Shown piece after piece: positions 9,001 to 61,705 of a stretch of 64,000 nt of DNA (the stretch's first letter is position 1; each line of letters opens with the position of its first letter). Source of the stretch: a virus; IMG/VR virus record IMGVR_UViG_3300043410_001007, positions 39,930 through 103,929 of that record, one strand, 5' to 3'. Both the position numbers and the translations under genes were made by a program. Below the pieces are notes generated by a model. The model did not search any database. It saw only the letters and a program-made list of their open reading frames with translations, and was not told where the DNA came from.

Positions 9001-12000
9001 ACAAGATAGTGATTACAAGGTATCCATGATTACAAAAGGCAGTAAATCGGCGCTAGTAACAATCACATTTACTAGTGGTGTAGTAGCGGTGGGCGACAAC
9101 GTAAAGATTACTTACGAGAACGGTGGCGCTAGTGCTCCTATGATGGAAATGTTAGGCACACCAACGCCAACTACCGGTGCTGTACAGTATGATCTAACTG
9201 GCTTCCTGGGCGATAATAACTATGCGCCGTTCAGTGACTTACGTGTCCTATTCGATAACGCGGCATCTACTCAACCCAACACATTTGTTACACGTTGTGG
9301 TGTTGATTTAGCAGACGGTATGTCTGTGGTAGTTGTCGGTGACGATACTAACAAAATCATTCCTGGTTTCCCATCATCACATGCCGCAGACATTGTGACT
9401 AAGACATATTATCTACGTGATGTAGTCTATCACAGCGACAACTTATGGCAAGATACATTCGGTACTTACACATTCAGATTAGCAACTATCCCAGATGGTC
9501 AGCCAATCGTATTGAGTAGTGGTACAGATGGTACGGGTCAACCGCGCCACCTAACATTTGTAGTCAACAACGATAACTTGATTGTTGAGATTGACGGCAC
9601 ACGTATCAATGGTATCGCTCCTAATACTCTCAAGTACGGCGGTATTGCTACCCCAATCAACAACACAGTAACACTAAGTTACCCAGCACCAGTCTACAGT
9701 CGTGCTACATTCTCATCAAGTTATTTGATTGTGAACATCAACGGCGTGCCTTACTCTGCCGCAAATAATTTCGATAATATCGATCCTGTCTCTGGTGCTA
9801 GTAGACACATTCAGTGGTACACTAACTACGATGCTAATAATAACCTGATGGCTGGCTCTGATGCGACATTCAATGTTGATGATACACTAGCAGACACTGG
9901 AGCATTCTTCGACGCTGGTGACCCATTCGATAATCAAAGCATTATTGACATTGTATTTGCTTACGACCTCACAGGTAGTTCTGGTCTAATATCTACTGAT
10001 ATTATTACTGTTGAATACAACATAGTTGGTAACGCATGGGTATCAGGACAAACATACGAAGTGGGCGATATCGTTACTTACAATGGTGTAATCTTCCGTT
10101 GCTACAGTGATGTTACTAGTGCTACTAATCCAGTAACAGATTACTCTCACTGGTCGACTATTTCTATGTCACCACCTCCGGTGTATGTAGTAGAAGTAAA
10201 TCAAGATACTGCTGGAACTACCGGCGTGAACGAAACTTCTATCGGTGGCACTCTAACGGTTTATGCGCCATGGTTAGATAACACTCACAAAGTATCAGTG
10301 ACATCATTTGGTAGAACTACTCAACAGTATCTCAAGACACAAATCTTGAGTGACATCACTGTCACGCAGGTAACTAACGTTATTGAAATCACAGGTCAAC
10401 CAACAGTTGTCTACACTGGACCAACACTATCACTACCTGGCGCGGCCCATGGCATAAACATCGGCGACTTAGTAATGATCAATGGTACAGCAGTCAAAGA
10501 TTTAGATGGCGGCAACTATTACGCTAAACCAATCGATCTATCAGGAACGCTAGGCTCAACCTACACAGAAGAATACACATTCCAGTTGTTCTCTGATAGT
10601 GGTCTTGTTACACCGATTGATTTAGCAAACCCAGGCGCATTCCAGCCGATAACTACTGGTAAAGAAAGTTATGTACAGTTGTTACAAACTGCGACCAATA
10701 CTGCTTCCATAGCAGTCAACCCAGCGGTCATCAATCAGTCTCAATTCAATTTAGTTGATAAGCAACGCTTATTCGTTTCGTTCACTAAGGACAGTACAGT
10801 CAAAGGTTCAACAGGCCGCTATTACGTACAAACTAGTAAGTTCGATATTGCTACATTAGACTATGTAGATGAAGAGGGAACATCACAAACAGTGTACACT
10901 CTCATCTTGTTACAACCAGTAGTGCCTGGCAATCTGATTACTATCACGAGTATGGTACCAACAGCGTCTCCAGGCGAGAACAGATTACGTATGAATGCTC
11001 AATGGGATACTATCTCTAGTTCAGCAGTAGTGCCGTTCTTGTTCCAGCAAGACCCAGCAAATCAATTGTATTACACTAGTGTGTATCGTGAGCCTGAGGT
11101 TAGTAGAACGCATATTACTGCGGTTAATAGCAGTGATAGTATCACAGTTGCTAACCCATACGCTCTTGTACGTATCTACAACTACACTCGCAATATTAAT
11201 GAAATCGGTGTTCTAAAAACTGGTGAGCACTACGTACTAATCGAAGGCATTACTACTGACGAAATTGCTCAAATCAATATCACTGATAGTACTGGTGTGA
11301 AGATTGAAGAATTCTACTGGGTAAACTCTGGTAACTCATCGAGTGCTCGTATTGTATTCACATTCAACCCTAACTCAAAACTATCGATTGTAGTAGCAGT
11401 AGGCAATAACTTACTAATCAAGGGTGAACAATTACAATATCGTGCTGTAGAACTAGATGTAAACAAGACTAACTATGGTCAAATAACTGGTATTCGTCAT
11501 GCTAGAAATACAACGATTGCCGCTGACCTACAACCATATGATATCGTACAGAGTATCAAAGAAGAAGACCTGATGGCTTCTAGTTTGTACAATAAAACTT
11601 GGTACAGTAATACAGTTACCGCTTTAGTTGATACTAGTGGCGGCGATGTATCTGGTACGTACACACTACAGGACAGTACACTAGAAACATCACTAGTAAA
11701 AGTAGGTGACACGCTCAAGTTCAGCAGTACAAGTAATGATTTCTCTGGTATTGCTTATGTCTACACTGGTCTACAAGCAATCAAGTCGATTGTTAGTGAT
11801 AATGGTACCTATGTAAACTTTGCGATTACTGCGTATGGTGACACCGGATGTGTTATTACAGACCGCTATTACTATGATACTGGTACCAGTACATGGCTGT
11901 ATGATCGCCCATCTACTGGATCTCAGCCAGCTAAGTTTGGTGAGACTATGGTGGTGAGTGGCAATGCTACTGATGGTTACTACATGTCAGTTCGTGTAGA

Positions 12001-12679
12001 TCAGCCAGGAATGGCAGTTGGCCAGACAGTTGTGTGTAGCGCAATCGCTTACGCTATTCGTGAGGGTACTACCATATCCAATATTGAAGAGGCAACACCT
12101 AGTAAACCATCCAATGCTAAGATTATTACCATGTACAACAAGACTGGCTGGCCTCTACTCAAGGATATCCCTCGAGGAACAGCAATCCAATACGGTACTA
12201 CAATGCCAGTACTAGCGCCTAATGCTAAGTTCGCTAAGCCTGGGGAGAAGATCCAGTTCAGAAGATACAACAAAGCGAATGATGACTGGTCTACTAAAAT
12301 CAAATATTACGTAGCATCGGTTGGATCGTATTTGGACGTCTTTACAGTGGTAGAAAGCAAGGTCAACCCCGATAATCCACAACAATGGACCATCAAGATT
12401 GCTGAGCCAGTTACTATTCCTAGTGACGCCCGCGCAGAAATCGCAATCAGCGAATTCACAGTCACAGACATCGTAGATAACGGCGATACTACATACGCAG
12501 TGACAGTAGAAACTTACACTGATTGTGTTGATGGCTCAGGAGCAACCGCGGCAGCAACGCCGCTAATTACCGGAGGCTCAGTAACATACGCAACTGCTAC
12601 ATACAAGGTGATGGACAAGCCGCTACAACTTGATAATAGTAGCATTGCTGGTGGATTCTTGAATTACACGGCAAAATAA
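2..12679 (+). CDS. Giant virion structural protein (baseplate wedge/receptor-binding type), 5'-truncated by the window edge
   Basis: The frame of ORF 107..12679 is open from position 2 (VGQPAEKTSF...). It has FG-GAP/propeller-like motifs (LIVGAPEE, VFTGAPYE, LIVSAPY), CBM5/12-like motifs (WSKGTAYSKGDLVVYNGQLY, WVSGQTYEVGDIVTYNG) and Thr/Ser/Asn-rich beta composition, and lies directly upstream of baseplate/fibre genes. Confidence 0.8.
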   Translation, partial: VGQPAEKTSFLATVSGGTNTGTGTVTQEYTTIDTKVDLTDPRLQDDLSAVTLFDGFLPNDFAISQDNQWLYVSNKNTNEVKVFINEVGKFKPVSKYKAENSFTNGAITAGWGTTIDTPRDGSKLIVGAPEETVDGSDNAGATYIYARLTENFLQSDRALKIVPYQTYSIEDMGDVDATSLEGWFDLGAGVQFRARITKDDGYIDNTAWKSGTIMTVGDATYGIKDTTGASSIIRIGSYLSGYDPAHSVGDTQDRIVAGTTVVGQFDSYETDTLTAFCDGANGSSEITFAARSTPAAVSVGQIVCVTTRNSTTPFAINHVSKADYEDSTKNSEVSKIQPDTYVAYIKNNVDYHTVSLFDGTSHSTGSLTKGSDGKIYKAKNTTTMDPVTDTTFVNWSQVKVTVGLTRKLTGQLASANNEVSFRAAGRTGRYIVSEAHNFSGAQVNHIAGSVVTAISKDVPFVARGYGSIVKRINGVLSSVDKTGTVSLRKDFIINDVVPNNKVIVYIDNKLVPLYTIGYRNGRNYRSYNYKITVNTLLNQTKVSFTKTPPIGSVVVIDFGKLILQQRTQSAAPRVGAQYGHSVATNNWGAEVFTGAPYEISDINSKHNIEGAVYRWTNVGQRYNNIVGDLKNLVPNNAGTYDVDANIYIDGFLVNIKFTGEASKASVAERIAKIIDTTEPTNVIASSNGTTFTIYNGIPGTTNDQVDITGDLDKIGITPYIKTQTIVDTINYSTTAAFGYTIAVNKELNSTRDALIVSAPYTNVLAETTFDFIDDLRDDDTIYDNGGTTFVDRFTSIGGVYEYDYLASDTETPTNPGIYTFGQYVNHVPSETAALRANTPRYGQSLNFNDGTITVGSPLWYRDGTGRVSQFTTTTYESCWYVDKAPLPKVDVNKLVTVAIYDTNDGTALSSLDYIDPAQGKHLAAVNTNLDFIGATDPASYTTGIIWNKKQVGKTWMDTTNFRLMNYNQPDLQYNARYFGQTFPGSTADIYTWIESDVEPMDYQGSGYVVSMDAYTAGVVFDRQSNTTQTKYYYWVKNYGDIPHGKTLAPTTIASYVLDPLNSGIQFLGALSTNSIALFNARESITENTSALHVGYSESDNDDVGHQDWLLIQTNNKDSFLPGVPLSIADAPSGLYLKYLTSFMGHEIDTETQLVRKALTVPDENLSILTRYGVSFRPRQTMFLDRELALKNYIDYANQVLASEPITETRGTFLLNKSGSDYDTADFWTVTDWWATGYSSSTKPSLEVDTYNTLLTIGSVDPVNADSTGIVTTLSDGLVARVKKNGQGLYETYRYTSSAGWSRINLENGTIAIKDTIYTQTSPIPSQEIYWIIRWLTEQVFVDDLSIENNNSLIMMFNFIQSDSPQGQNYLPWLNKTSLVDIQHTIRQLLPYKKFQIQSSTLINGYINEVKPFHVYVKEFSYKYTATETFEGDITDFDLPAKFRSSSATYVTPRLIQKQSESLGEYTSTDGIWSESEYANWFKYHGLSYTNDGVGVEESTVVPVTQVIVDITSSAASIYVESVAGLPVSGTVKINGEEIWYESVNRSTNSITGLVRTTGSTHASGSIVSLITKPVMVMETGRGYLAAPIVTAWYDTTDFPYGPTVTATFMTTMKNGGLTVVDVVEEGRGYPTTPELRVSMSSIVSTFTSGQVDTQVNQFSVGGHQFVNGDSVVFVTDSTDSNLALRNYGNYYVGALDGESFALYETYREAMASFTTTEPIVRGRAAGDNYHFYLSSPYDYSTPMFVTGDLVKLRTNVAGGTITDPSYNDAFEYYYAHVDESIDTTGATPHYALYDYVTFHTSHSDAMSGAHPVEFAPVGDPNAVRSNEFCIASRTQRVDDGRVTIGAKIDGTVGIAARLQAYHGNRQTRGIRTAMKFDRITYKTSVFNWESGVNRFQEMGWDVTTWSKGTAYSKGDLVVYNGQLYRASRDTIKRWEVSSASPNETISLWTPGTKYAVDKKVLYSTIIYKCTEATTDKPTDGDLEVFSLANFTEVASDDPLITAADRIVGFYRPTSDMPGSTYADLSQLMTGTTYPYQTIIDPEFTWGETYAFLPRNVDTEENTVTLNNIKPLLASYQEVVYGTYTTTANSITQYHMASQFTPAVTETNLVGNSLSVSGTQNLHKGMPIRFIGDMIQVYTNTIVNGTIVESVANAFYKDTTYFIANVDASNSSIQISYNQQLSQLSSISTTASRVYANGMITLDTAIGNYTDATIKFSGSSFGNVSANFYYIDSIDGTGKNVTLRTDVFSSGGQFVPPVSANIGANGISGNMKVTIDPYLPQKNASGYTTLVLGHHVGMIGVANANANITVTVDSTDGLYLNAPVKFGGNSIGNISNSSVYFISNVDVANSAINIVTIMGDTTAVPNVANATGTMTVRTGFPITTVTGISSGNYYVANTTTHIVGSTGNITVGTLGANAKVQFASGSVSGANVNKTTSYYITSANTTTNHITITDKLVGGTTITPSTSTLSNSTGPLYLVSDYYTQPVESSYITGDLLKMYYKDPADETIGFYFTNREANNVISLYASSDDAEAKTNSIAIHDGAYGYLVKPQTVVSAVGPLKYMIGDIVPMTFELSSPTLGFGLTPNKTYWARFISVTTVRLYRTRTDAQNEYNHLPLLKQIGGQMVIGSPIIVDVVQADGSTKIETVGYNEYDSIIVSDNNVTPDYNVAGKEFTWGFGPEELMAGVVSDGVNITVTTRAGSTWDPLATINGTVNARAISDKFGHTGFNMVRFDASANGTKVDWYLDAGDLDSNGHAKIKSSGFVGATTFVESTFTNPVTTPSGVKFASAVYFGDRVKNPVTVEVYAKTTTYGQVKLVEGTDYILDMANKVIHSVSNTYVSISLELVVYEFGNSSHLLRSTSDIYGLQTVGDHSEMMLDVPFALVDLPTIENYWLGASVFVNGVKLEYYDGVRPLFNYNAPMFSVIPQRPFDPKNDPYNPAKIVFNTLYTSSDFASFVLTTNVIGYYRVENASDTYKAPITDETAYSRGKIGVYVNGVLTTQDSDYKVSMITKGSKSALVTITFTSGVVAVGDNVKITYENGGASAPMMEMLGTPTPTTGAVQYDLTGFLGDNNYAPFSDLRVLFDNAASTQPNTFVTRCGVDLADGMSVVVVGDDTNKIIPGFPSSHAADIVTKTYYLRDVVYHSDNLWQDTFGTYTFRLATIPDGQPIVLSSGTDGTGQPRHLTFVVNNDNLIVEIDGTRINGIAPNTLKYGGIATPINNTVTLSYPAPVYSRATFSSSYLIVNINGVPYSAANNFDNIDPVSGASRHIQWYTNYDANNNLMAGSDATFNVDDTLADTGAFFDAGDPFDNQSIIDIVFAYDLTGSSGLISTDIITVEYNIVGNAWVSGQTYEVGDIVTYNGVIFRCYSDVTSATNPVTDYSHWSTISMSPPPVYVVEVNQDTAGTTGVNETSIGGTLTVYAPWLDNTHKVSVTSFGRTTQQYLKTQILSDITVTQVTNVIEITGQPTVVYTGPTLSLPGAAHGINIGDLVMINGTAVKDLDGGNYYAKPIDLSGTLGSTYTEEYTFQLFSDSGLVTPIDLANPGAFQPITTGKESYVQLLQTATNTASIAVNPAVINQSQFNLVDKQRLFVSFTKDSTVKGSTGRYYVQTSKFDIATLDYVDEEGTSQTVYTLILLQPVVPGNLITITSMVPTASPGENRLRMNAQWDTISSSAVVPFLFQQDPANQLYYTSVYREPEVSRTHITAVNSSDSITVANPYALVRIYNYTRNINEIGVLKTGEHYVLIEGITTDEIAQINITDSTGVKIEEFYWVNSGNSSSARIVFTFNPNSKLSIVVAVGNNLLIKGEQLQYRAVELDVNKTNYGQITGIRHARNTTIAADLQPYDIVQSIKEEDLMASSLYNKTWYSNTVTALVDTSGGDVSGTYTLQDSTLETSLVKVGDTLKFSSTSNDFSGIAYVYTGLQAIKSIVSDNGTYVNFAITAYGDTGCVITDRYYYDTGTSTWLYDRPSTGSQPAKFGETMVVSGNATDGYYMSVRVDQPGMAVGQTVVCSAIAYAIREGTTISNIEEATPSKPSNAKIITMYNKTGWPLLKDIPRGTAIQYGTTMPVLAPNAKFAKPGEKIQFRRYNKANDDWSTKIKYYVASVGSYLDVFTVVESKVNPDNPQQWTIKIAEPVTIPSDARAEIAISEFTVTDIVDNGDTTYAVTVETYTDCVDGSGATAAATPLITGGSVTYATATYKVMDKPLQLDNSSIAGGFLNYTAK

Positions 12680-24479: not shown

Positions 24480-25380
24480 TACCGAAATCGTACATATCGA
24501 TGAACTAGACTTGGTCTATCTTAGTTACGATGAACCACAAAAAGAAGAGTTCTGGGTTAGACTGAAAGCAATTGCTCCCTGGGCAAAACGAGTAGACGGC
24601 ATAAAGGGCAGTGATACAGCACACAAAGCGGCTGCAGCCGCAAGTACTACAGAGCGCTTTATTCTAGTTGATGGTGATAATCTAGTTCAGCCGGAATTCT
24701 TCGATCAATACTTAGAAATAACTCCTGAAAATCGTTACTGTCAGTTTAGATGGAGAGCACGTAATCACATCAACGGCTTACATTACGGTAACGGTGGCAT
24801 CTCTTCTTGGACTAAATCGTATGTAAATTCAATGAGAACACATGAGAATAGTGCGGGATCTGATAAGACTAATATTGAGTTTTGTTTCGACAGTAATTAC
24901 TGGCCGCTACATAACTGCTACTCTACTAGTTACGCTAATTACTCGCCAAAGCAAGCATGGCGTGCTGGATTCAGAGAGGGAGTAAAATTATGTAGTCGTA
25001 ACGGCAAGATGCCCGAAAACACCCGCGGCTTCAAAGACTGGGTATTCAAACGCAACTATCAAAATCTTTCTATCTGGCACACTATCGGTCGTGATGTAGA
25101 GAACGGATTCTGGTCCTTACTGGGCGCACGACTTGGTACTCACTATCTGATGCTACGAGAGTGGGATTATGTAGAGGTACAAGATTTCGATTGCTTAGAT
25201 AGATTATGGGAACTACATAAAAACGACGATGAACAAACTGCCTCAGTAATCGCCAGAGAACTAAACTCTGAACTAGACACTAACATTGTTGAACTCAATA
25301 GCGAGGCTAGTAAGTTCTTCAAAGATTACATTGCTAGTCAGTGGCAAAACAAAACAATAATGACTAGAGAAGGTCAATGA
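24472..25380 (+). CDS. GT2-like glycosyltransferase
   Basis: LVYLSYDEP...RVDGIKGSDTAHKAAA...FILVDGDN (DxD)...AWRAGFREGVKL. Start reassigned to ATG 24472 to avoid a long overlap. Confidence 0.7.
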   Translation: MSDTEIVHIDELDLVYLSYDEPQKEEFWVRLKAIAPWAKRVDGIKGSDTAHKAAAAASTTERFILVDGDNLVQPEFFDQYLEITPENRYCQFRWRARNHINGLHYGNGGISSWTKSYVNSMRTHENSAGSDKTNIEFCFDSNYWPLHNCYSTSYANYSPKQAWRAGFREGVKLCSRNGKMPENTRGFKDWVFKRNYQNLSIWHTIGRDVENGFWSLLGARLGTHYLMLREWDYVEVQDFDCLDRLWELHKNDDEQTASVIARELNSELDTNIVELNSEASKFFKDYIASQWQNKTIMTREGQ

Positions 25381-26768
25381 CCAACACAAGAACAATTCGC
25401 ATCAAAGAAGTGCGTGACGAAATCAATAACATCTCGCCATCATTCTGTGCCGCAAAGTGGAAGCAAGTGACCCTACACTTACAGAACGGTCACACTCATA
25501 GTTGCCATCACCCGGCCACTCACATTGTTCCGCTTGATGAGTTAGTAGAAAACCCTAGTGCCCTACACAATACAGCATACAAAAAGAACATTCGACAAGC
25601 CATGCTAGATGGCCTTAGGCCACAGGAGTGCTCGTATTGCTGGCGCTCAGAAGACAGTGGAACTTTACTAAGTGATCGTGTTTTAAAAAGCGGTGAAACT
25701 TGGGCCAGACCACACATACCAGATATTGTTAGTAAGCCTGCTACTGATGATGTATTTCCTAGTTATGTAGAAGTATCATTTAGTAATGTGTGTAATTTTA
25801 AGTGTAGTTATTGTAGTCCAAACGTTAGTAGCGCATGGATGGAAGAAATTCAGCAATATGGTGGGTATCCAACAAAATCTAAGTTCAATGATATCGAGGG
25901 ATTTGTAGTTACTAAAAAGATACCTTATCTAGCACGTGAGCATAATCCGTACGTAGAAGCATTCTGGCAATGGTGGCCAGAATTGTATGCTAAATTAGAA
26001 GAGTTTCGCATCACCGGTGGCGAACCGCTACTATCAAAAGATACATTCAGGGTACTAGACTACGTTATTGAGAATCCCAACCCACGCCTGAAACTCAGTA
26101 TCAATACTAATCTAAATGCCCCCGACGGCTTGAATGATAAACTAATCGAACGATTCAAGCGAATACAGGAGTTAGGTGCGGTCAAAGAACTACAACTATT
26201 CACTAGTTGCGAAGCGGTTGGTGCCCAAGCAGAATACATTCGATACGGCATGAACTACAATGCCTGGCTAGAAAATCTAGACCGAATGCTCACTGAACTA
26301 CCAGACGTTCATGTTACTGTTATGAGTACATACAATATTCTAAGTCTTACTACCTATGATAGATTCTTAGCAGATATCTATGCGATGAAGAAGAAGCACG
26401 AGGCTACTACCAGAAAAAATAAACGTCAACCACTGCTAATCGACATACCATTCTTGTATCGTCCAGAGCATCAAGCACCATACATCTTTGGTGAAGAGTT
26501 TATCCACTACGCAAGTTCAAGTTTAAAATACATGACTGAGAACGCTCTCAAAGTACCAGGCAATATCTCGGGATTTCTACCACACGAGATTGATGGTATG
26601 CGCCGGGTAGTCAATATGATGAATGATAGCGCTAAAAAGGATTACATGGCAGCAAGACAAGATTTAGTTCGCTTTGTTGATGAGCATGACCATCGCCGCG
26701 GTACTAACTTTTTAGAAACATTCCCTGAATATCACGGAATCTACAAATACACTAAGCACACTCTCTAA
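25377..26768 (+). CDS. Radical SAM enzyme with N-terminal auxiliary Fe-S (twitch/SPASM-like) domain
   Basis: CNFKCSYC (CX3CX2C) and ITGGEPLL; N-terminal FCAAKW...SCHH...CSYCW cysteines. Confidence 0.9.
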   Translation: MTNTRTIRIKEVRDEINNISPSFCAAKWKQVTLHLQNGHTHSCHHPATHIVPLDELVENPSALHNTAYKKNIRQAMLDGLRPQECSYCWRSEDSGTLLSDRVLKSGETWARPHIPDIVSKPATDDVFPSYVEVSFSNVCNFKCSYCSPNVSSAWMEEIQQYGGYPTKSKFNDIEGFVVTKKIPYLAREHNPYVEAFWQWWPELYAKLEEFRITGGEPLLSKDTFRVLDYVIENPNPRLKLSINTNLNAPDGLNDKLIERFKRIQELGAVKELQLFTSCEAVGAQAEYIRYGMNYNAWLENLDRMLTELPDVHVTVMSTYNILSLTTYDRFLADIYAMKKKHEATTRKNKRQPLLIDIPFLYRPEHQAPYIFGEEFIHYASSSLKYMTENALKVPGNISGFLPHEIDGMRRVVNMMNDSAKKDYMAARQDLVRFVDEHDHRRGTNFLETFPEYHGIYKYTKHTL

Positions 26769-27334
26769 ACGCCACAAACGACTAGATGAATCCTCTCTTC
26801 GTTTCCGCCGTTGTAGACCCAATGAACTTCACGTGTATCTACACGCCACCAGTGACCGTCAGCGGGTATGTGATAACACGTGGCCACTACAGACTCCGGA
26901 CTGTTCTGTTCAATGACAAAATCGCTAGCACGGGCGATGTAAGCGTTGGGGTTAGTTTTCAACGCTAGATGATACCTTATTTCATCATCACGATGAACAC
27001 TCAAGCCAGTTTTAGGTAGTAATCTCATAAAACGAACTCTACCGATCTGACCAACACGCTCAGACAACTTCTCAATAGATCGTCTTATGTAGTAATCATC
27101 ACCTATGGTCCACTGATTGAATTCAATTTCACTAGACAGCTTAGTATTTGTTGTGCGATCATACAAGCTACCGGTAGCATCCAACCATCTGTCCTCTGCG
27201 CCATATCTGTATCTAAGACCAATCTGATTTCGGTCACCCCACTTACATTGTGTAAGAACTCGTTCTAGGTTAGCATTGACCCGATCTAAATCGACCTTCA
27301 TTTTTGTACGTTTTAGAAACAATTTTTTCTCCAA
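26765..27334 (-). CDS. Asp/Asn beta-hydroxylase-like 2OG-Fe(II) oxygenase
   Basis: LSVHRD (HxD)...RYHLAL...VHWVYNGGNEERIHLV. Confidence 0.75.
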   Translation of the reverse strand: MEKKLFLKRTKMKVDLDRVNANLERVLTQCKWGDRNQIGLRYRYGAEDRWLDATGSLYDRTTNTKLSSEIEFNQWTIGDDYYIRRSIEKLSERVGQIGRVRFMRLLPKTGLSVHRDDEIRYHLALKTNPNAYIARASDFVIEQNSPESVVATCYHIPADGHWWRVDTREVHWVYNGGNEERIHLVVCGV

Positions 27335-27960
27335 ATAGCCATGTAGCGAGTGTACATATTAGTTACCAACTCACCTTCATAGTAGATACGTGAGTTATCA
27401 CGTTTGTTCATCCTAATAAATTCATCTAAGCTAGAGCTACAACGGACATGCTCTACGCAATCAAAATAGTTGTTGCCTTGTACTGCCACCAATGTGCCAT
27501 TAGGTATCTTTTTGTACCATTCATCATACACCTCTTGTGTAACGTGCTCACTACTAGTGTTGATTACGATGTCTGGACGATACTGATTACTGTACACATA
27601 GGTCTTCATGTCGGCGGTTTCGGCTTTGAATTTCCAACTGTTAATCTCGTGAGGTTTGTTTACTGTATCCGCAATAGTTTCGCACCACGGATCTAAGTCA
27701 ATACTACGAATACGACGAACTTCGATATCATCGTGTTCCATAATCATACTAGCAAGAATACCAATCCAGCCACCAAAAATGTAAATATTAGCAGGACCCA
27801 TAGTAAACTCAGCCAACTCACTAACTAACCATGCTTTACTATCTAACTGACCATCCCATAGCGCATCAAGCGCACGTGTACGCTCCTCGTGCGAGAGCAA
27901 ATTTCTAATAGCATTCATCCAGTGGGCCAGGGCACCCACACTAACTCTAAAATCTTTCAT
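27313..27960 (-). CDS. Class I SAM-dependent methyltransferase
   Basis: IYIFGGWIG (motif I), SIDLD, DIVINTSSEH. Confidence 0.7.
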   Translation of the reverse strand: MKDFRVSVGALAHWMNAIRNLLSHEERTRALDALWDGQLDSKAWLVSELAEFTMGPANIYIFGGWIGILASMIMEHDDIEVRRIRSIDLDPWCETIADTVNKPHEINSWKFKAETADMKTYVYSNQYRPDIVINTSSEHVTQEVYDEWYKKIPNGTLVAVQGNNYFDCVEHVRCSSSLDEFIRMNKRDNSRIYYEGELVTNMYTRYMAIWRKNCF

Positions 27961-55764: not shown

Positions 55765-55787
55765 AAAGGGGCTTACGAGCCCCTTTT
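55765..55787. terminator. Bidirectional intrinsic terminator
   Basis: AAAGGGGCT-tacg-AGCCCCTTTT between convergent genes. Confidence 0.88.
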
Positions 55788-55788
55788 C

Positions 55789-56253
55789 TTATAGCTTCTG
55801 ATACATCACATGATACTGTGGTAACAATCCCATCTTCTTAGCACTAGCTAAACGCACGGTATTATCAACATGGACAACACTTTGAATACTAGTACACTTG
55901 AGTGACTTGCCAATATGCTCTATGTAATGATGCATTAGTGTGTACAAACCTCTGCCTCTTGCTTCTGGCGCAACAGCACTAAGAGTAATCCAAATCATCT
56001 GCTTCTCTACATTGTGTAGATAGACGATATGACCTAGAATAGTACCATCTAACTCAGTAGCATAAACAGCACCGTGAGTGTCTTCCCAAGTCGTAGTAGG
56101 ATTACTGTGACCATTGTCAATTAGGTCAGCCATTTGTCTCAGAAAGAACGAGTACATCTCACTTCCACCAATCTTCGCCACAGTTTTCACTAGTATTGAG
56201 CGGCCGTGTTTATCTTTTTCATCTGTTACGCTGGTTGGTTGTACTGTAATCAT
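55789..56253 (-). CDS. GNAT acetyltransferase
   Basis: LSAVAPEARGRGLY (motif A), VHVDN...KKMG. Confidence 0.85.
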   Translation of the reverse strand: MITVQPTSVTDEKDKHGRSILVKTVAKIGGSEMYSFFLRQMADLIDNGHSNPTTTWEDTHGAVYATELDGTILGHIVYLHNVEKQMIWITLSAVAPEARGRGLYTLMHHYIEHIGKSLKCTSIQSVVHVDNTVRLASAKKMGLLPQYHVMYQKL

Positions 56254-56268
56254 ACAGCTATTTAGATA

Positions 56269-56400
56269 TTATCTCATGTAGTATGAAAATTCACCAAGAG
56301 CCTTGTTATATGATTCGCTAGGAAATAGAAATGGCAGAGAGATAAAACTTATAGCGCATATGATTACTAATGCGATTGAATATAACTCTCGCCACTTCAT
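56269..56400 (-). CDS. 43-aa single-pass membrane peptide (not in ORF track)
   Basis: MKWRELYSIALVIICAISFISLPFLFPSESYNKALGEFSYYMR, ATGA-coupled to the oxygenase. Confidence 0.6.
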   Translation of the reverse strand: MKWRELYSIALVIICAISFISLPFLFPSESYNKALGEFSYYMR

Positions 56401-56990
56401 TTGAACTTTTCCGGTAGGGCATTGAAACTTACTTGAAAGTTAGTTCGTCTACTAGTTACATTCTCGACACTGTGGATTACCTGTGTATTCAGAATATACC
56501 AACAGTTATGTGGTCCCTGAATCTTGTCTAGTAGTTTCAAGTGACTACTACGTTCAACTGCTAGTCCACGCTCACGTAATACAGGATGGCCATCTTCTTG
56601 CCAGAAACTCAATGTAGCATCAGGGCCACCAGTTTCGATGTTGTATAGTAATACGAACTCTCTGGTAGTATCAGTGTGTGGTAGTTGCTCTTTATCAAAG
56701 AACATCACGCCGCTATTGTTTTCTTCAAAAGTATCGATGATGTTCTCTCTGACCCACTGAGTGTATTCATCATTGAAACGATATCTAATGTTCTGGTTAC
56801 TAGCCATTGGTTTGATCCAGTTGTATGTCTGGTCTTGCCAATCGTCAGTCTTATCGATAGATAGATAATCTAGATTGTCGGATTTGAATAGACCTAAATC
56901 TGGACGATATACTCGGTCAATCTTATCGATTAACTCTGCTGGTGGACTAGGTAAGTCCAGAACTTTATAATACCATTCCATGACGTTCAC
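56397..56990 (-). CDS. Cupin/2OG-Fe(II) oxygenase-like protein
   Basis: LPHTD (HxD)...LLYNIETGG...IHSVEN...RTNFQVSF. Confidence 0.7.
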   Translation of the reverse strand: MNVMEWYYKVLDLPSPPAELIDKIDRVYRPDLGLFKSDNLDYLSIDKTDDWQDQTYNWIKPMASNQNIRYRFNDEYTQWVRENIIDTFEENNSGVMFFDKEQLPHTDTTREFVLLYNIETGGPDATLSFWQEDGHPVLRERGLAVERSSHLKLLDKIQGPHNCWYILNTQVIHSVENVTSRRTNFQVSFNALPEKFK

Positions 56991-57898
56991 TTCATTGTTT
57001 TCTTAGCAACTTCACTTACTTCTTCCCAGTGTTTTGCCTGCTCATTGTACCAAGCGTCTAGCTTGTTCGTAGGTACATCTAGTGGAGAGCCGAAATCAAC
57101 TTGGTAAGTATTGAGTACGGCATCAGTTCTTGATGCTTTATAAAGAATGTTTCTAAGCTCAGTGAATTTTTCTTCTGGCATAGAACGTGGTGCTACTAGG
57201 TGATTAGGGTTGCTCATCTTGGTAAACACTTGTGGGAAGCCACTACTTACATAAGTTGGCCGACCATTTACTGACTTAGATCCTGTGATGCCTAGAATAG
57301 TTACTTTCTTGCCATCTTCACCATTGACCCACTTCTCTTGTTCGCCCATGAAGCCGATACTAATATCTAAGTTACCTGATAACATTGACATTAGAGCATC
57401 AGTAGTTGATTTGAATGGAACAATAGTAGCATTAGGATACTTGGTCATAATCTGTACTGATGATAGATGACTTACTACGCCTAAACCACTAACGCCGATG
57501 TTGATAGGAGCGTTAGTTGGAATTTCTTTCCATGATTTGTACTTCACACTAGCAGCCGACATAGGAGCAGAAGTCTGTGGTAGTAGTTCTCTGAAGTCAG
57601 AGATTTTGTGACTTTCGTTAGGGAAGAAATTAGGGCGAACAAAGAAAGCACCACTGGTAGCTAAGATAGTGTTTGGTGTATTTGCTACATGACGACTAGC
57701 GATACTACCACCAGCACCTGGTTTAGCATCGAATACAAATGTGTATTTGTCTTGTGCTTTGTTTGCTTCTTCTACGAGTACACGACTGTAGTTTGCCATC
57801 GTATCACTGACACTAAACGCATACACAACTGTGATAGTTTCGCCAGCATGGGCTAGTGCGCCAAGTGATAGTAGAATAGAGAGTAATAGTTTTTTCAT
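56987..57898 (-). CDS. Bug/TctC tripartite tricarboxylate transporter substrate-binding protein
   Basis: Signal peptide, KPGAGGSIA, GVSGLGVVSHL, IVPFKS. Confidence 0.85.
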   Translation of the reverse strand: MKKLLLSILLSLGALAHAGETITVVYAFSVSDTMANYSRVLVEEANKAQDKYTFVFDAKPGAGGSIASRHVANTPNTILATSGAFFVRPNFFPNESHKISDFRELLPQTSAPMSAASVKYKSWKEIPTNAPINIGVSGLGVVSHLSSVQIMTKYPNATIVPFKSTTDALMSMLSGNLDISIGFMGEQEKWVNGEDGKKVTILGITGSKSVNGRPTYVSSGFPQVFTKMSNPNHLVAPRSMPEEKFTELRNILYKASRTDAVLNTYQVDFGSPLDVPTNKLDAWYNEQAKHWEEVSEVAKKTMK

Positions 57899-57914
57899 GT
57901 TGAATCCTTGATTA

Positions 57915-57934
57915 TGTACATTGATTTATGTACA
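57915..57934. promoter_or_regulatory. Candidate operator palindrome
   Basis: TGTACAT-N6-ATGTACA between the luxR-like and tctC-like genes. Confidence 0.45.
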
Positions 57935-57962
57935 CTACACGCGGTCAACACTATACTTTCGT

Positions 57963-58640
57963 TTATCTGGTTACGTCTGTTTTGTTAGCGAGTGCTAGTT
58001 GTGTTCTGGTCTTCAAACCAAACTTACGAAGAATAATACTAACGTGGTTCTTTACAGCCTGCTCACTTATCTTTAGCGCACCCGCAATTTGTTTGTTTGA
58101 CATACCACGCTTGGCTACCATGTTGAAAATCTGTGACTGCCTGTCAGTGAGGGCAATAGAGTTCTTCTTTACTGTGTTTGTATCCTTGATACACACGGCC
58201 GGCCAATGAGCATCGCCTGCTACAAGTGTCTGATACGCAGTAATAGTATGCTTCTTATCAAAGAATCGCATTGCTGGTATGATACCTAGAACACAGTTTC
58301 TTTTTAGCTTGACTAGAGTATTCTTGTCTAATGCCCTATCAGAAACAACAGCAATATCTACGGTCTTCTTATTAGCAACGAACTTCACTAGTGATGATAG
58401 CATACTCAGCACTTCGTCCAGCATCATATGCTCACGCTCTAAGAAATCTAAACGAAATACGATTAGTAGTGACTGCTCTGGAGCTTCCAATAACTCGGTC
58501 ATCACTGATGACCAAGTGCCGCTTATTCTGATATCTATCTCTGCTTCCCTACGTAATACGTCCACCACCTCACTAATAGATGATAGTTCATCTATACTCG
58601 ATGGGTCAACAGTAGGGCGAAAGTAGATAACGGTAGACAT
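57963..58640 (-). CDS. LuxR/NarL-family HTH regulator with degenerate receiver-like N-terminus
   Basis: LTDRQSQIFNMVAKRGMSNKQIAGALKISEQAVKNHVSIILRKFGLKTRTQLA. Confidence 0.88.
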   Translation of the reverse strand: MSTVIYFRPTVDPSSIDELSSISEVVDVLRREAEIDIRISGTWSSVMTELLEAPEQSLLIVFRLDFLEREHMMLDEVLSMLSSLVKFVANKKTVDIAVVSDRALDKNTLVKLKRNCVLGIIPAMRFFDKKHTITAYQTLVAGDAHWPAVCIKDTNTVKKNSIALTDRQSQIFNMVAKRGMSNKQIAGALKISEQAVKNHVSIILRKFGLKTRTQLALANKTDVTR

Positions 58641-58667
58641 AAAAAAGCCTAGCGTTAGCTAGGCTTT
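58641..58667 (-). terminator. Terminator-like hairpin abutting the luxR start codon
   Basis: Minus strand AAAGCCTAGC-taac-GCTAGGCTTTTTT then ATG. Confidence 0.7.
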
Positions 58668-58688
58668 GTATTTAGAAGTCTTTGACTA

Positions 58689-59588
58689 TCAGTTAATTTT
58701 TACTTTGCTTGCTAATGACTTCCAGTAAGCAGTACTAGTAGTGAAGAACTTGTCTAGGCCGGCTTCGTTAATGTTAGCTGGTTCACAGTAGTCAACAGCA
58801 TAAGCGGCACGTACACTATCAGTCTTAGCAGCCTTAGCGAAGATTTCATAGAACTCCCGGCGCTTTGCACTATCAACTGTATCTGGTAGTAAGAGGTGAT
58901 GACCAACGTTCATCTGTGCGAATGTCCCTGGGAAACCTTCACTCACCAGTGTTGGGTAACCGTTTACACGTTTGGTGCCTGTAATGCCTAGTACGTTTAC
59001 TTGTCGACCTTTGTTGTCTTTAGCCCACTGCTCAGCTTCCGAGATGAATCCGATGTGGAAGTCTGTCTGACCACTGACCATACTCAACATACTGTCGTTA
59101 GTTGATTTGAATGGAACAATGTTCATGTTCTTGTACTTCTCTTTTAGTTCAAGTGCTGCCAAATGTGTGGTAACACCTAGGCCACTAATACCGACGCTAG
59201 CGTCCTGTGGTACTTCCTGCCATGACTTGTACTTGACGCTAGTAACTGCCATAGGAGCAGTACAGTGTACATACTGTTCACGCATCTTAGTCAAGTCGTA
59301 ACTCTCGTTAGGGAATACAACTGGACGAACGAAGAACGCAGTAGAGTGAGCAAGAATAGAATTTGGTGTATTCAGAACATGATTTACTGCGATAGCGCCG
59401 CCAGCACCTGGCTTAGTATCAAAGATAAAGTTGTATTTGTTTTGAATTTTGTTTGCTTCGTTAGCTAAAGTGCGGTGATAGTTAGCAACACTATCGCCTG
59501 GACCCCAAGCATAGAAGATTGTGATGTTTTCAGCCGCACTAGCACCGAATGCCATTGCCGCTAATAACAGAGCGAGTAGTTTTTTCAT
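58689..59588 (-). CDS. Second Bug/TctC substrate-binding protein
   Basis: Signal peptide, KPGAGGAIA, GISGLGVTTHL, IVPFKST; clear paralog of 56987. Confidence 0.85.
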   Translation of the reverse strand: MKKLLALLLAAMAFGASAAENITIFYAWGPGDSVANYHRTLANEANKIQNKYNFIFDTKPGAGGAIAVNHVLNTPNSILAHSTAFFVRPVVFPNESYDLTKMREQYVHCTAPMAVTSVKYKSWQEVPQDASVGISGLGVTTHLAALELKEKYKNMNIVPFKSTNDSMLSMVSGQTDFHIGFISEAEQWAKDNKGRQVNVLGITGTKRVNGYPTLVSEGFPGTFAQMNVGHHLLLPDTVDSAKRREFYEIFAKAAKTDSVRAAYAVDYCEPANINEAGLDKFFTTSTAYWKSLASKVKIN

Positions 59589-59644
59589 AGGATTTCCTTT
59601 GTAATGATGCTTTATTTACGCACTACAAAAGAGTCCAATAAATT

Positions 59645-60886
59645 TTACCAAGACCTTTTGTAATTTACAATCTTATTATGGAAGAATTCACGCACAAGCG
59701 GATCACCAACATACATCATTTCATAGTCACCGGTAAGTCCCAATCTACTTACCGGCAATTTTCCCTGGTCAACATTACTATTGTCTTGTGATATGGTGAT
59801 GTTATTCATACTATCAATTTTGATTTTGAAGTTACGGTACCAGTCATTCTTATCGACGCTCCAAATGTAATCTCTGGCAACATTTTTGTAACTAGAATGT
59901 GTTGATTGGATTTTTAGACCATTGTTGTTATTGACCATTGACCAACGTTGAAAATCTGTGCCACTGTACCAGTTCATAATAGTATCAATACATGTTCGCC
60001 ATTCAATACGATCATTGTAATAAAGAGCACCACGAACAGCACAATTTGAGTATTTGATGTTAAAAATTTCCCACCAGAAAAAATCATGTAAGGAATGTAC
60101 TGGTACACTAGCAGTCTTTACGTTGTGGTCCATCTTTTCATACATTAATCTACCAAATTCAGGATTAGATTCAATCTGTAGGTGACGAATAATGATTTCT
60201 TTGTAATTGCTGTAATGAACGTTACCATCTGAGATTTTGTATTTTAGCGGCGCCAATTTACTCCTAACTTCTGGACTCATCTCCTGTAGATAATAATCGT
60301 AATTTGCGTAAAGTTGTAGACCAAATACAGTACCGAAAATACCATCACCCTCATCAGCAGTAATAGGCACGTATCCCTGTTCTATGAGATCGTGATACTT
60401 GTTGATAGAACTATCTCTGATAACAAATTTGTCTACGATCTGAGTAGCCCAGAAGTAAGGATTTTCCATGATAGTATCGGCACTACTACACACGACCACG
60501 CTCTTTAATTCTTCTTTGGTGAGATTTCTAATAAGAGCGCACATAACAGCAGTACTATCAATGCCACCACTGTACATCATGGCAAATTTCTCACCGTTGC
60601 TGATACGTGCTTTTACTTCACACGCACGAGCGTCACTGACCTCTTCAAACGTCTTGTTGAAATTAGGGTCATAAGATGGCATTTCAAATCCTGGAATCAC
60701 ATCCTGTTCCCATGGCAATTCCCATACACCGTTTCTGGCAACAAATCGACACGGATTAAAACGTCTAGAAATATCGATAATAAATTTCCCATCAACACCA
60801 GCTGATGCGTAGACAGAATTCCAATAATTATTATTGTATCCGTTAAATGAAATGCTTGAAAATAATAATGGTTTTTCTAAGTTCAT
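59645..60886 (-). CDS. Asparagine-synthetase-like N-type ATP pyrophosphatase (no glutaminase domain)
   Basis: MYSGGIDST PP-loop; ITADEGDGIFG resembles the AsnB xGEGxDELFG motif. Confidence 0.7.
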   Translation of the reverse strand: MNLEKPLLFSSISFNGYNNNYWNSVYASAGVDGKFIIDISRRFNPCRFVARNGVWELPWEQDVIPGFEMPSYDPNFNKTFEEVSDARACEVKARISNGEKFAMMYSGGIDSTAVMCALIRNLTKEELKSVVVCSSADTIMENPYFWATQIVDKFVIRDSSINKYHDLIEQGYVPITADEGDGIFGTVFGLQLYANYDYYLQEMSPEVRSKLAPLKYKISDGNVHYSNYKEIIIRHLQIESNPEFGRLMYEKMDHNVKTASVPVHSLHDFFWWEIFNIKYSNCAVRGALYYNDRIEWRTCIDTIMNWYSGTDFQRWSMVNNNNGLKIQSTHSSYKNVARDYIWSVDKNDWYRNFKIKIDSMNNITISQDNSNVDQGKLPVSRLGLTGDYEMMYVGDPLVREFFHNKIVNYKRSW

Positions 60887-61650
60887 AATAATGATGTTGA
60901 GATTGTTACTGGCTTGAATTTTTTGTGTTCGTTAAGTTCATCTGGAAAACCTCTACCTAGATTACGATAGAACGATGTCATGAGAAATTCCTGCTCGGCA
61001 TGACATTCTTTCCAAATATCAATAATTCTTTGTTCTGCCTCTTCAATAGTATTACTGATGTACAAGGCATAACGAATATTAAAGAATACGCCCCTCTCAG
61101 CGTTACTACGATCATACATCCCGGTCAATGTTCCATCGACTGTTTCTGTTAATTTTTTAGGTATGTATTTGTCCATAAATGATTGGTTATCCATCCAATT
61201 GGCCATGGCGTCAGTAATTTTACATACATAAACCACATCTCTTACGTACTCAGCATATTCTTGGAGCCGTTCTAAGATTTCTATTTTTTCCGGAGTATTG
61301 TAATCTGGATTTGGTCCAACATTTTCAATTGGATTAGTATCGTATGGAATAAACATCAAACACGGCGTTTGACTGCGATTAACGATACTAACCGTTTGAA
61401 TAGTTTGATTTGTCTTATTAGTAATGGTATAGTCAAGGCAATTTTTTATATTCAGGTCAAACTTAATGGTATGTAATACATATGCTAAAGTTGGTAATTT
61501 ACTACTTAAAATCTCAGCAGTTTCTAAAGTTGCCCATACATCACTATCGTCTATCAAAATAAATCGATCCAATCCTGGAGCAAAAATACCATGAAGTCGT
61601 CTACGCATATAAGCATCACGATAAATGAATCCAACTTTTGTATTTTTCAT
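60883..61650 (-). CDS. Hypothetical protein
   Basis: ATGA-coupled to the ligase, AT-rich, AGGA SD before ATG 61650. Confidence 0.65.
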   Translation of the reverse strand: MKNTKVGFIYRDAYMRRRLHGIFAPGLDRFILIDDSDVWATLETAEILSSKLPTLAYVLHTIKFDLNIKNCLDYTITNKTNQTIQTVSIVNRSQTPCLMFIPYDTNPIENVGPNPDYNTPEKIEILERLQEYAEYVRDVVYVCKITDAMANWMDNQSFMDKYIPKKLTETVDGTLTGMYDRSNAERGVFFNIRYALYISNTIEEAEQRIIDIWKECHAEQEFLMTSFYRNLGRGFPDELNEHKKFKPVTISTSLL

Positions 61651-61686
61651 TGACAAATCCTGTAAATAGTGATATACTTATCACTA
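61650..61686. promoter_or_regulatory. Compact divergent promoter region with palindrome
   Basis: Plus-strand TTGACA-N17-TATACT, internal GTAAATA, and TAGTGATA-tact-TATCACTA (61667-61686). Confidence 0.7.
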
Positions 61687-61705
61687 AACAAGGACCAAGG
61701 AAAAA

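Follow-up and report, generated by a model that had tools for sequence, protein, structure and literature searches.

We analyzed a 64,000-nucleotide stretch of viral DNA (hereafter the window; bases 39930-103929, at the end of the 103,929-base linear IMG/VR virus record IMGVR_UViG_3300043410_001007) and found that an island of eight co-oriented minus-strand open reading frames (ORFs) at positions 55,789 to 61,650 represents an operon that recurs among phages and for which we found no published description. The core of this operon is a translationally coupled pair of genes joined by a 4-nt overlap, U257, which encodes a protein of no known family, and PP, which encodes a PP-loop enzyme. A GNAT gene is the third frequent partner, and genes for carboxylate-binding proteins appear as cargo between PP and GNAT in one large clade of relatives; this cargo is drawn from two unrelated families, TctC of the TTT systems and DctP of the TRAP systems, and in the window comprises TctC_A and then TctC_B with a putative HxD oxygenase, cupin197. 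We tentatively interpret the island as serving organic-acid capture followed by ATP-dependent amidation and tailoring. In the periplasm, the acid would be caught by the exported binders and passed on to permeases of the host (TctAB or DctQM); the U257-PP pair would then amidate it inside the cell, and the oxygenase and the GNAT would tailor the amidated product. By analogy with its fold, PP would use ATP to adenylate the carboxylate, and transfer to an amine or to ammonia would then yield the amide.

Synteny of the U257-PP pair across phages

Viral contigs searched with TctC_A returned 11 loci, and the same search with an alignment of PP sequences returned 51; PP as a single-sequence query of the viral contigs retrieved no loci, so that the alignment query was needed. 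Collapsing the PP genes at 90% identity left 38 nonredundant relatives. In 35 of these, U257 is the gene immediately upstream of PP, mostly with the 4-nt overlap, and two further relatives have three genes between U257 and PP, encoding a cupin, a GNAT-like protein, and a desaturase. Directly after PP comes a TctC gene in 9, a DctP gene in 7, and a GNAT gene in 8 of the 38 relatives; among the three genes that follow PP, there is a binder in 19, a GNAT in 13, and one or the other in 26. The spacing at these junctions is mostly very short, with a PP-TctC gap of at most 9 nt in eight of nine cases and a PP-GNAT gap of at most 1 nt in all eight, and PP-DctP gaps span 23-80 nt. Counts over whole records point in the same direction: binder genes occur in seven of nine related records and adjoin the U257-PP pair in six of those seven, and two records of 345 kb (94% complete) and 173 kb (100% complete) hold exactly one binder gene each, adjoining the pair. 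The genes that flank the island in the window (PhoH, phrog_420, and a clamp loader) are missing from all the other loci, and the flanks of the module vary widely; because the flanking genes differ between loci, the genes act as a unit rather than recurring by simple collinearity. Co-orientation of eight genes is in itself unremarkable in a phage, and the part of the pattern not due to chance is the recurrence of the arrangement elsewhere. An earlier description of the window made from its letters alone (hereafter the sequence-only reading) had supposed that the enzyme and the binders belong together; synteny, the very short gaps, and the whole-record counts of this co-occurrence check agree with it, and the association of enzyme and binder, extending to the GNAT and the oxygenase, is real and recurrent.

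A quick maximum-likelihood tree of PP, in which the binder-gain events are few and related, contains a clade of 10 rows with the pair followed by a GNAT or by nothing, and a clade of 25 rows with binders common and a GNAT often beyond them. This distribution is suggestive of an older U257-PP-GNAT triad, with binders later inserted between PP and GNAT. The cargo at this slot is TctC, DctP, DUF2061, cupins, a desaturase, or nothing, and the window is its most loaded version. Variable cargo of this kind is also consistent with a site behind a conserved phage gene pair that takes up unrelated morons, each acting alone with host systems, and the sequence-only reading had likewise offered independent auxiliary genes accumulated at a hotspot as its alternative. 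TctC genes found elsewhere without this PP family, short TAAATA-like boxes ahead of TctC_A, the LuxR-type gene, TctC_B, and GNAT, a hairpin after TctC_A, and a LuxR-type gene and a 43-aa ORF that are unique to this phage all argue for such a site. We nonetheless regard it as an unlikely account: in most relatives PP either overlaps the TctC or GNAT gene or is at most 9 nt away from it, which implies co-translation, the same slot is filled by two unrelated families of carboxylate binders, the whole-genome counts put the sole binder gene at that very site, and other PP-loop families likewise adjoin TctC. The hotspot explanation is thus too weak for the core, which is coupled across many contexts, and is possible for the LuxR-type gene and the 43-aa ORF.

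Protein families, folds, and predicted chemistry

The sequence-only reading had labeled PP an AsnB-like ATP-dependent ligase, a label that holds at the level of fold and not as Pfam membership. An alignment of 23 PP relatives contains 80 invariant positions, including the SGGxDST motif (S106-G-G-I-D-S-T in PP) and a DEGD motif; a profile of these relatives reached E 0.03 against PDB sequences, in the PP-loop region only, and family searches also gave sub-threshold LarE-like and PAPS-reductase-like matches. An AlphaFold model of PP built from the relatives' alignment (pLDDT 86.6) was compared by VIA-align with one representative per PDB sequence cluster (48,161 chains), and the top four chains are all AsnB-type synthetase domains, covering PP residues 24-409. 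The model matches TsnB9 with Z 11.5 (257 residues aligned), beta-lactam synthetase (1jgt) with Z 10.5, human ASNS (9b6c) with Z 10.2, and carbapenam synthetase (1q15) with Z 8.4, and the other PP-loop folds (GMP synthase, LarE, NAD synthetase, TilS, and QueC) lie at Z 4.7-7.9. PP residues 24-409 align to residues 174-611 of the TsnB9 chain, with no counterpart of the N-terminal domain; since the match begins at the start of the synthetase domain of AsnB-type enzymes, PP lacks a glutaminase (Ntn) domain. Full-length look-alikes of PP (TM 0.7-0.8) are found in BFVD in uncultured phages, some of them auto-named asparagine synthase, and the PP family, with 436 members (sequence clusters) and Pfam domains in none, appears to be essentially viral and uncatalogued.

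The partner protein U257 has no Pfam, PHROG, or NCBIfam match and no feature match in the protein atlas. Its model (pLDDT 80.7) resembles generic helical bundles at best, with Z no higher than 6.3 by VIA-align, and Foldseek returned nothing. A split glutaminase domain was considered for U257 and rejected, there being no Ntn-like fold match and no invariant Cys. The other PP-loop families of the relatives (c6, c8, and c18) were considered as close paralogues of PP and set aside, their similarity being confined to the PP-loop region. Three PP-loop families besides that of PP (~410, 303, and 305 aa, with SGGSDS, SGGCDS, and SSGLDS motifs) lie near the module and near TctC genes and recur in related loci L008, L011-L016, L029, L048, and others; fatty-acid desaturases, an AMP-dependent ligase, an SDR, and a BKACE-like enzyme are also recurrent in these loci, the last three labeled by reading the sequence.

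Both Bug/TctC calls of the sequence-only reading stood, with signal peptides in both proteins and PF03401 matches that are above the gathering cut-off, both marginally (Table 1). TctC_A aligns over nearly its full length with solved TTT binders: the terephthalate-binding protein (E 2.2e-8, residues 44-292), Bug27 (E 3e-8), and BugD (E 3e-5). Its glycine-rich ligand loop, TKPGAGG, aligns with NRTGAGG, and PGAGG is invariant across the clade. The signal peptides of TctC_A (MKKLLALLLAAMAFGASA) and TctC_B (MKKLLLSILLSLGALAHA) both have, as read from the sequence, a Sec-type start (MKKLL...), a hydrophobic core, and an AxA motif, and these are kept in 13 relatives. The TctC_A clade comprises 490 proteins, of which the best 120 listed are all at least 72% identical. 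The two binders of the island are not recent duplicates, because they are only 47% identical, and TctC_B is at most 49% identical to any TctC of the fetched loci. With signal peptides and the GAGG loop conserved in the clade, the binders look functional.

A search for the cognate permease found no TctA in the 103.9-kb record, extending the absence that the sequence-only reading had noted in the window, and none in five large relatives; DctP is also absent from the 103.9-kb record. The missing TctAB does not exclude membership in the TTT family, in which orphan status is usual: most known TTT binders are orphans that share distant permeases, and their ligands include aspartate, glutamate, quinolinate, adipate, malate, and terephthalate (PMC11452294). 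A full TRAP transporter (DctP-DctQ-DctM-DctP) is present in one related phage record of 244 kb (L069, G002:C1:109333-113577), where ~24 kb separate it from the closest U257-PP module; its presence agrees with a role in uptake.

The GNAT label was confirmed by PF00583 (Table 1), and the acyl-CoA motif RG(R/x)G is conserved, with R99 and G100 invariant within RGRG. Cupin197 belongs to a large family of 523 representatives, most of them viral, and the four residues listed for it in Table 1 are invariant in 40 diverse relatives. No Pfam match was found among these 40 members and no PDB sequence match even with the 40-sequence profile; by language-model similarity its neighbors are viral, and among those with a name 2OG-FeII_Oxy_3 and Asp_Arg_Hydrox come closest (0.90), which is only a lead. 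Of the HxD oxygenase label, then, the HxD...H triad with its downstream Arg is present, and a family match in Pfam or PDB is missing; the protein is probably a 2-oxoglutarate (2OG)/Fe(II)-type oxygenase. A relative of cupin197 (70-73% identity), the sole close one in the viral contigs, lies directly after a TctC gene in locus L067; the link between TctC and the HxD protein therefore recurs once, and TctC and oxygenase may form a small cassette of their own. The place of the 43-aa ORF is taken in L067 by a different, Cys-rich small ORF, and an iterated search of all ORFs of 64 related loci found no relative of the 43-aa ORF. The sequence-only reading had named it a membrane micropeptide; it stands as an unverified gene call, and the other seven of the eight gene labels hold.

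Cellular relatives of the island genes bear on its function. A pattern scan for the phage TctC clade over one genome per species (185,579 species) found only three loci, two of them in Burkholderiales metagenome-assembled genomes (MAGs) at 61-64% identity. The third, L072, is a contig of 2.4 kb assigned to an uncultured Legionella MAG, on which a phage-type TctC (38-44% identity) is accompanied by the beginning of a PP-loop gene of phage type; the contig probably stems from a phage and was mis-binned. In one of the two Burkholderiales MAGs, on the 267-kb contig that carries the TctC relative and ~20 kb away from it, two tandem PP homologues (hhalign 99.9%, E 2e-31; about 350-370 aa, GC 69%) stand in a flagellar cluster (L077, G006:C23:250000-266936) with the order flgE, fliP, fliA, the tandem PP homologues, a 497-aa unknown protein, and a B12-binding radical SAM protein, relatives of which are also present in phage loci. 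This cluster may be a flagellin or glycan modification set. A 267-aa protein upstream of the bacterial PP homologues was rejected as a relative of U257 (hhalign probability 0.1%). No PP homologue was found in 300 other sampled Burkholderiales genomes, which makes one of 301, that one having been picked for its TctC relative. The cellular relatives of TctC and PP suggest a Burkholderiales host range.

These relatives raise the alternative that U257, PP, and GNAT modify a macromolecule, be it a glycan, a nucleic acid, or a protein such as flagellin or a virion component, with the binders as passengers or fragment binders. PP-loop amidotransferases and GNATs cooperate in the tailoring of flagellin glycans (pseudaminic acid), the sole cellular PP homologues found lie in a flagellar cluster beside a B12-binding radical SAM enzyme, the triad occurs without any binder throughout the 10-row clade, which suggests that it works alone, and TATAAATA late-type boxes are present upstream of U257 in some relatives. 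However, the Legionella N-acetyl sugar amidotransferase matches the PP model with Z 4.7, compared with 10-11.5 for the AsnB-type enzymes, NeuB was found in none of the 10 phage records searched, and the bacterial flagellar cluster contains no U257 homologue; macromolecule modification also leaves the tight TctC-PP coupling and the position of the sole binder unexplained, and we consider it improbable. Nonulosonic-acid metabolism in particular was rejected, on the absence of NeuB in those 10 records and the weak fold match to the sugar amidotransferase.

Several observations weigh against the preferred scheme of organic-acid capture and amidation. In 12 of the 38 relatives the pair has no binder or GNAT gene within a distance of three genes, the binder association is concentrated in one clade with few independent events, and in 8 of the 11 loci fetched with TctC_A the TctC gene has no member of this PP family nearby (4 of these 8 adjoin another PP-loop family). 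Within the window, PP and TctC_A are separated by 56 nt, and a hairpin follows TctC_A. PP scores 16 bits against Pfam Asn_synthase (PF00733), below the cut-off of 21 and over residues 91-138 only, and Foldseek places the same families on top weakly (E 6e-3 or worse). The proposed carboxylate adenylation and amide formation by PP would follow from its fold alone, residues having been compared with AsnB within the PP-loop. The record encodes no permease, and uptake would rely on that of the host. Finally, the position of the cellular PP relatives in a flagellar cluster hints at macromolecule modification, not nutrient metabolism.

The regulator and the signaling proposal

The sequence-only reading had proposed that the enzymes make or modify an acylated carboxylate, that the two TctC proteins sense or capture it, and that the LuxR-type regulator responds, as a non-peptide communication or metabolic-sensing circuit in a phage. 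In the 225-aa regulator, the GerE helix-turn-helix (HTH) domain occupies about aa 163-217, within the last 55 residues, and only HTH families match the protein (E <=0.01). DevR, VraR, NarL, and CviR match it over the HTH only, and NCBIfam ErdR matches aa 94-217; GenBank phages yield partial matches only, the longest being to a NarP-type regulator (aa 79-218, 30% identity). Pfam Response_reg (REC) was not detected in the regulator at E 0.1 or below, nor was an autoinducer-binding domain detected with Pfam. Based on these matches, the protein appears to be a NarL/FixJ-like orphan, whose N-terminal 150 aa are possibly a degenerate receiver. Neither the iterated search of the 64 related loci nor the viral-contig search found a relative of the regulator, and no GerE domain occurs in the five large relatives, of which two are at least 94% complete. 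The LuxR-type gene thus appears to be a lineage-specific addition, outside the conserved system, and may tune expression in this one phage.

Some features do accord with a circuit. All its parts are adjacent and co-oriented in the window, Bordetella BctC signals through BctDE, and a 20-bp palindrome in the divergent promoter region, the sole exact copy within the 64-kb window, is a candidate operator. Furthermore, in the two Burkholderiales MAGs the nearest cellular TctC has signaling genes as neighbors: in both loci (L070 and L071) the TctC relative is adjacent to and convergent with genes for a PAS histidine kinase (PAS-HisKA-HATPase) and a REC-GerE regulator, after which come genes for an sspA-like GST and cytochrome bc1, and in L070, the MAG locus that extends upstream, flhA, flhB, and fliR lie on the other side of the TctC relative. 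The MAG gene pair is, however, convergent rather than operonic and known from two related genomes only. The phage LuxR-type protein was considered as a copy of the MAG regulator and rejected, its likeness being limited to the HTH at 28% identity, and the neighborhood is at most a weak echo of the signaling idea. The palindrome is not conserved upstream of U257 in the relatives; as a conserved operator it was rejected, being unique to this phage. No histidine-kinase ATPase domain (HATPase_c) and no recognizable receiver were found in the 103.9-kb record, confirming across the record the absence of a kinase that the sequence-only reading had stated for the window, so that a binder in the periplasm has no route by which to signal to an HTH protein in the cytoplasm. 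The regulator is not supported as a part of the system, having no relative in the 64 loci or the five large relatives, nor as a small-molecule sensor, lacking an autoinducer-binding domain. Taken over the whole set, nothing points to a synthesis-sensing-response or communication circuit, which we judge to be extremely improbable.

A related proposal would have U257-PP, the oxygenase, and the GNAT build a secreted carboxylate small molecule (e.g., a metallophore, a shared good) that the phage's exported TctC or DctP retrieves to the benefit of the infected cell, with the NarL-like regulator closing the loop in this phage. We rate such making and recapture as very unlikely; if true, it would be the first virus-encoded pathway for synthesis and retrieval of a small molecule.

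Island layout, phage setting, and comparison with known systems

The eight ORFs, the terminator, and the divergent promoter region were all located where the sequence-only reading had placed them, and Table 1 collects their coordinates together with a second, terminator-like hairpin between TctC_A and the LuxR-type gene that it had missed and that ends 3 nt ahead of the LuxR-type ATG. Because this hairpin splits the island, two transcription units are likely, [U257-PP-TctC_A] and [LuxR-TctC_B-cupin197-(43 aa)-GNAT]. From the coordinates, three junctions have 4-nt overlaps: U257/PP, TctC_B/cupin197, and cupin197/43-aa ORF. The divergent control region contains a sigma-70-like match, TTGACA-17-TATACT, on the plus strand. 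T4-type TATAAATA late promoters within the island were rejected, with zero exact copies.

Table 1. Genes and signals of the island and its borders, in window positions
Feature	Positions	Strand or place	Details
GNAT	55789-56253	-	PF00583, 39.8 bits vs cut-off 20.7, E 6e-10
43-aa hydrophobic ORF	56269-56400	-	ORF call only, without relatives, unverified gene
cupin197 (197-aa HxD protein)	56397-56990	-	invariant H105, D107, H173, R182
TctC_B	56987-57898	-	PF03401, 29.1 bits vs cut-off 27
LuxR-type HTH regulator, 225 aa	57963-58640	-	GerE, E 2.8e-15, residues 164-216 only
TctC_A	58689-59588	-	PF03401, 31.8 bits vs cut-off 27
PP, 413-aa PP-loop enzyme	59645-60886	-	SGGIDS motif
U257, 255 aa counted from ATG	60883-61650	-	matches no known family or fold
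Hairpin terminator	55765-55786	between convergent GNAT and plus-strand gene ending 55763	9-bp perfect G+C-rich stem, 4-nt loop
Terminator-like hairpin	58644-58667	-	10-bp perfect stem, 4-nt loop, T run
Divergent control region, 55 bp	61651-61705	between island and divergent plus-strand gene	
Perfect palindrome TAGTGATA-N4-TATCACTA	61667-61686		overlaps -10 hexamer of plus-strand sigma-70-like match

The source is an uncultured giant freshwater phage, T4-type and lytic-type, of whose genome the 103.9-kb record represents about 29% (CheckV). The remaining genes of the record are phage-like, among them a tail fibre, a T4 gp44-type clamp loader, PhoH, and a radical SAM enzyme, and for the one non-island window gene tested, the top cultured-phage matches are jumbo phages, e.g., PA5oct and a 349-kb Vibrio phage. 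The GC content is 42.5%, and the composition of the island genes looks native. The 64-kb window contains no tRNA genes that could serve as a host clue, and searches of GenBank phages (50,697 records for PP) with the island DNA, with TctC_A, and with two PP members found no relatives. Elsewhere in the window, an ORF of >4,200 codons at 2-12679 runs off the left end, and a second islet at 25377-27960 consists of genes for a radical SAM protein (25377-26768) and, both on the minus strand, for an Asp/Arg-hydroxylase-like cupin (26765-27334) and a protein of 215 aa (27313-27960); the families of the latter two have members directly upstream of U257-PP in related phages.

The island adds two unnamed enzyme families, a ligase of ~436 sequence clusters and an oxygenase of 523 representative sequences. 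Such binders often co-purify with their ligand, so the TctC proteins are ready tools for compound discovery. Once identified, the compound would reveal the organic acid that giant freshwater phages capture and convert, and a large, purely metagenomic enzyme family would gain a function together with its obligate partner.

Several known systems resemble the island in part. With BctC-BctDE signaling and LuxR-type quorum sensing it shares a TctC-family protein adjoining a GerE-type regulator; unlike these, it has no kinase, no Pfam-recognized receiver, and no autoinducer domain, and its regulator is not conserved with the module. The carbapenem cluster combines the synthetase CarA with the 2OG oxygenase CarC and the LuxR-type CarR, and the likeness of the island to it is superficial only, a CarB-type enzyme having been neither sought nor seen. 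The AsnB-type amide and lactam synthetases (TsnB9, beta-lactam synthetase, and CarA, as well as E. coli AsnB and human ASNS) share the SGGxDS motif with PP and are its best structural matches over most of its length, and the chemistry expected from them would be adenylation of a carboxylate followed by amide formation. PP differs from them in lacking the Ntn domain, in falling below the Pfam cut-off, and in having an obligate, coupled 255-aa partner.

The two TctC proteins have the Pfam family, the full-length alignment, the signal peptide, and the GAGG loop in common with the orphan TTT binders (BugD, BugE, Bug27/69, AdpC, TphC/TBP, and MatC), which are likewise without adjacent TctAB; unlike those, they are phage-encoded, form a tight conserved clade with hardly any members in cellular genomes, and are coupled to a PP-loop enzyme instead of to catabolic genes. 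As to phage uptake genes, pstS is an established precedent for a binder carried by phages, and phage pstS and tctA (the latter in SUP05 viruses) are recorded auxiliary genes (PMC6359870). As with cyanophage pstS and SUP05 tctA, the virus here would supply part of a host uptake system. Membrane parts were seen in one relative only, and the known phage uptake auxiliary genes such as pstS are single; in the operon described here, by contrast, the binder belongs to the same operon as cytoplasmic tailoring enzymes and is fixed beside a putative ATP-dependent amide-forming pair.

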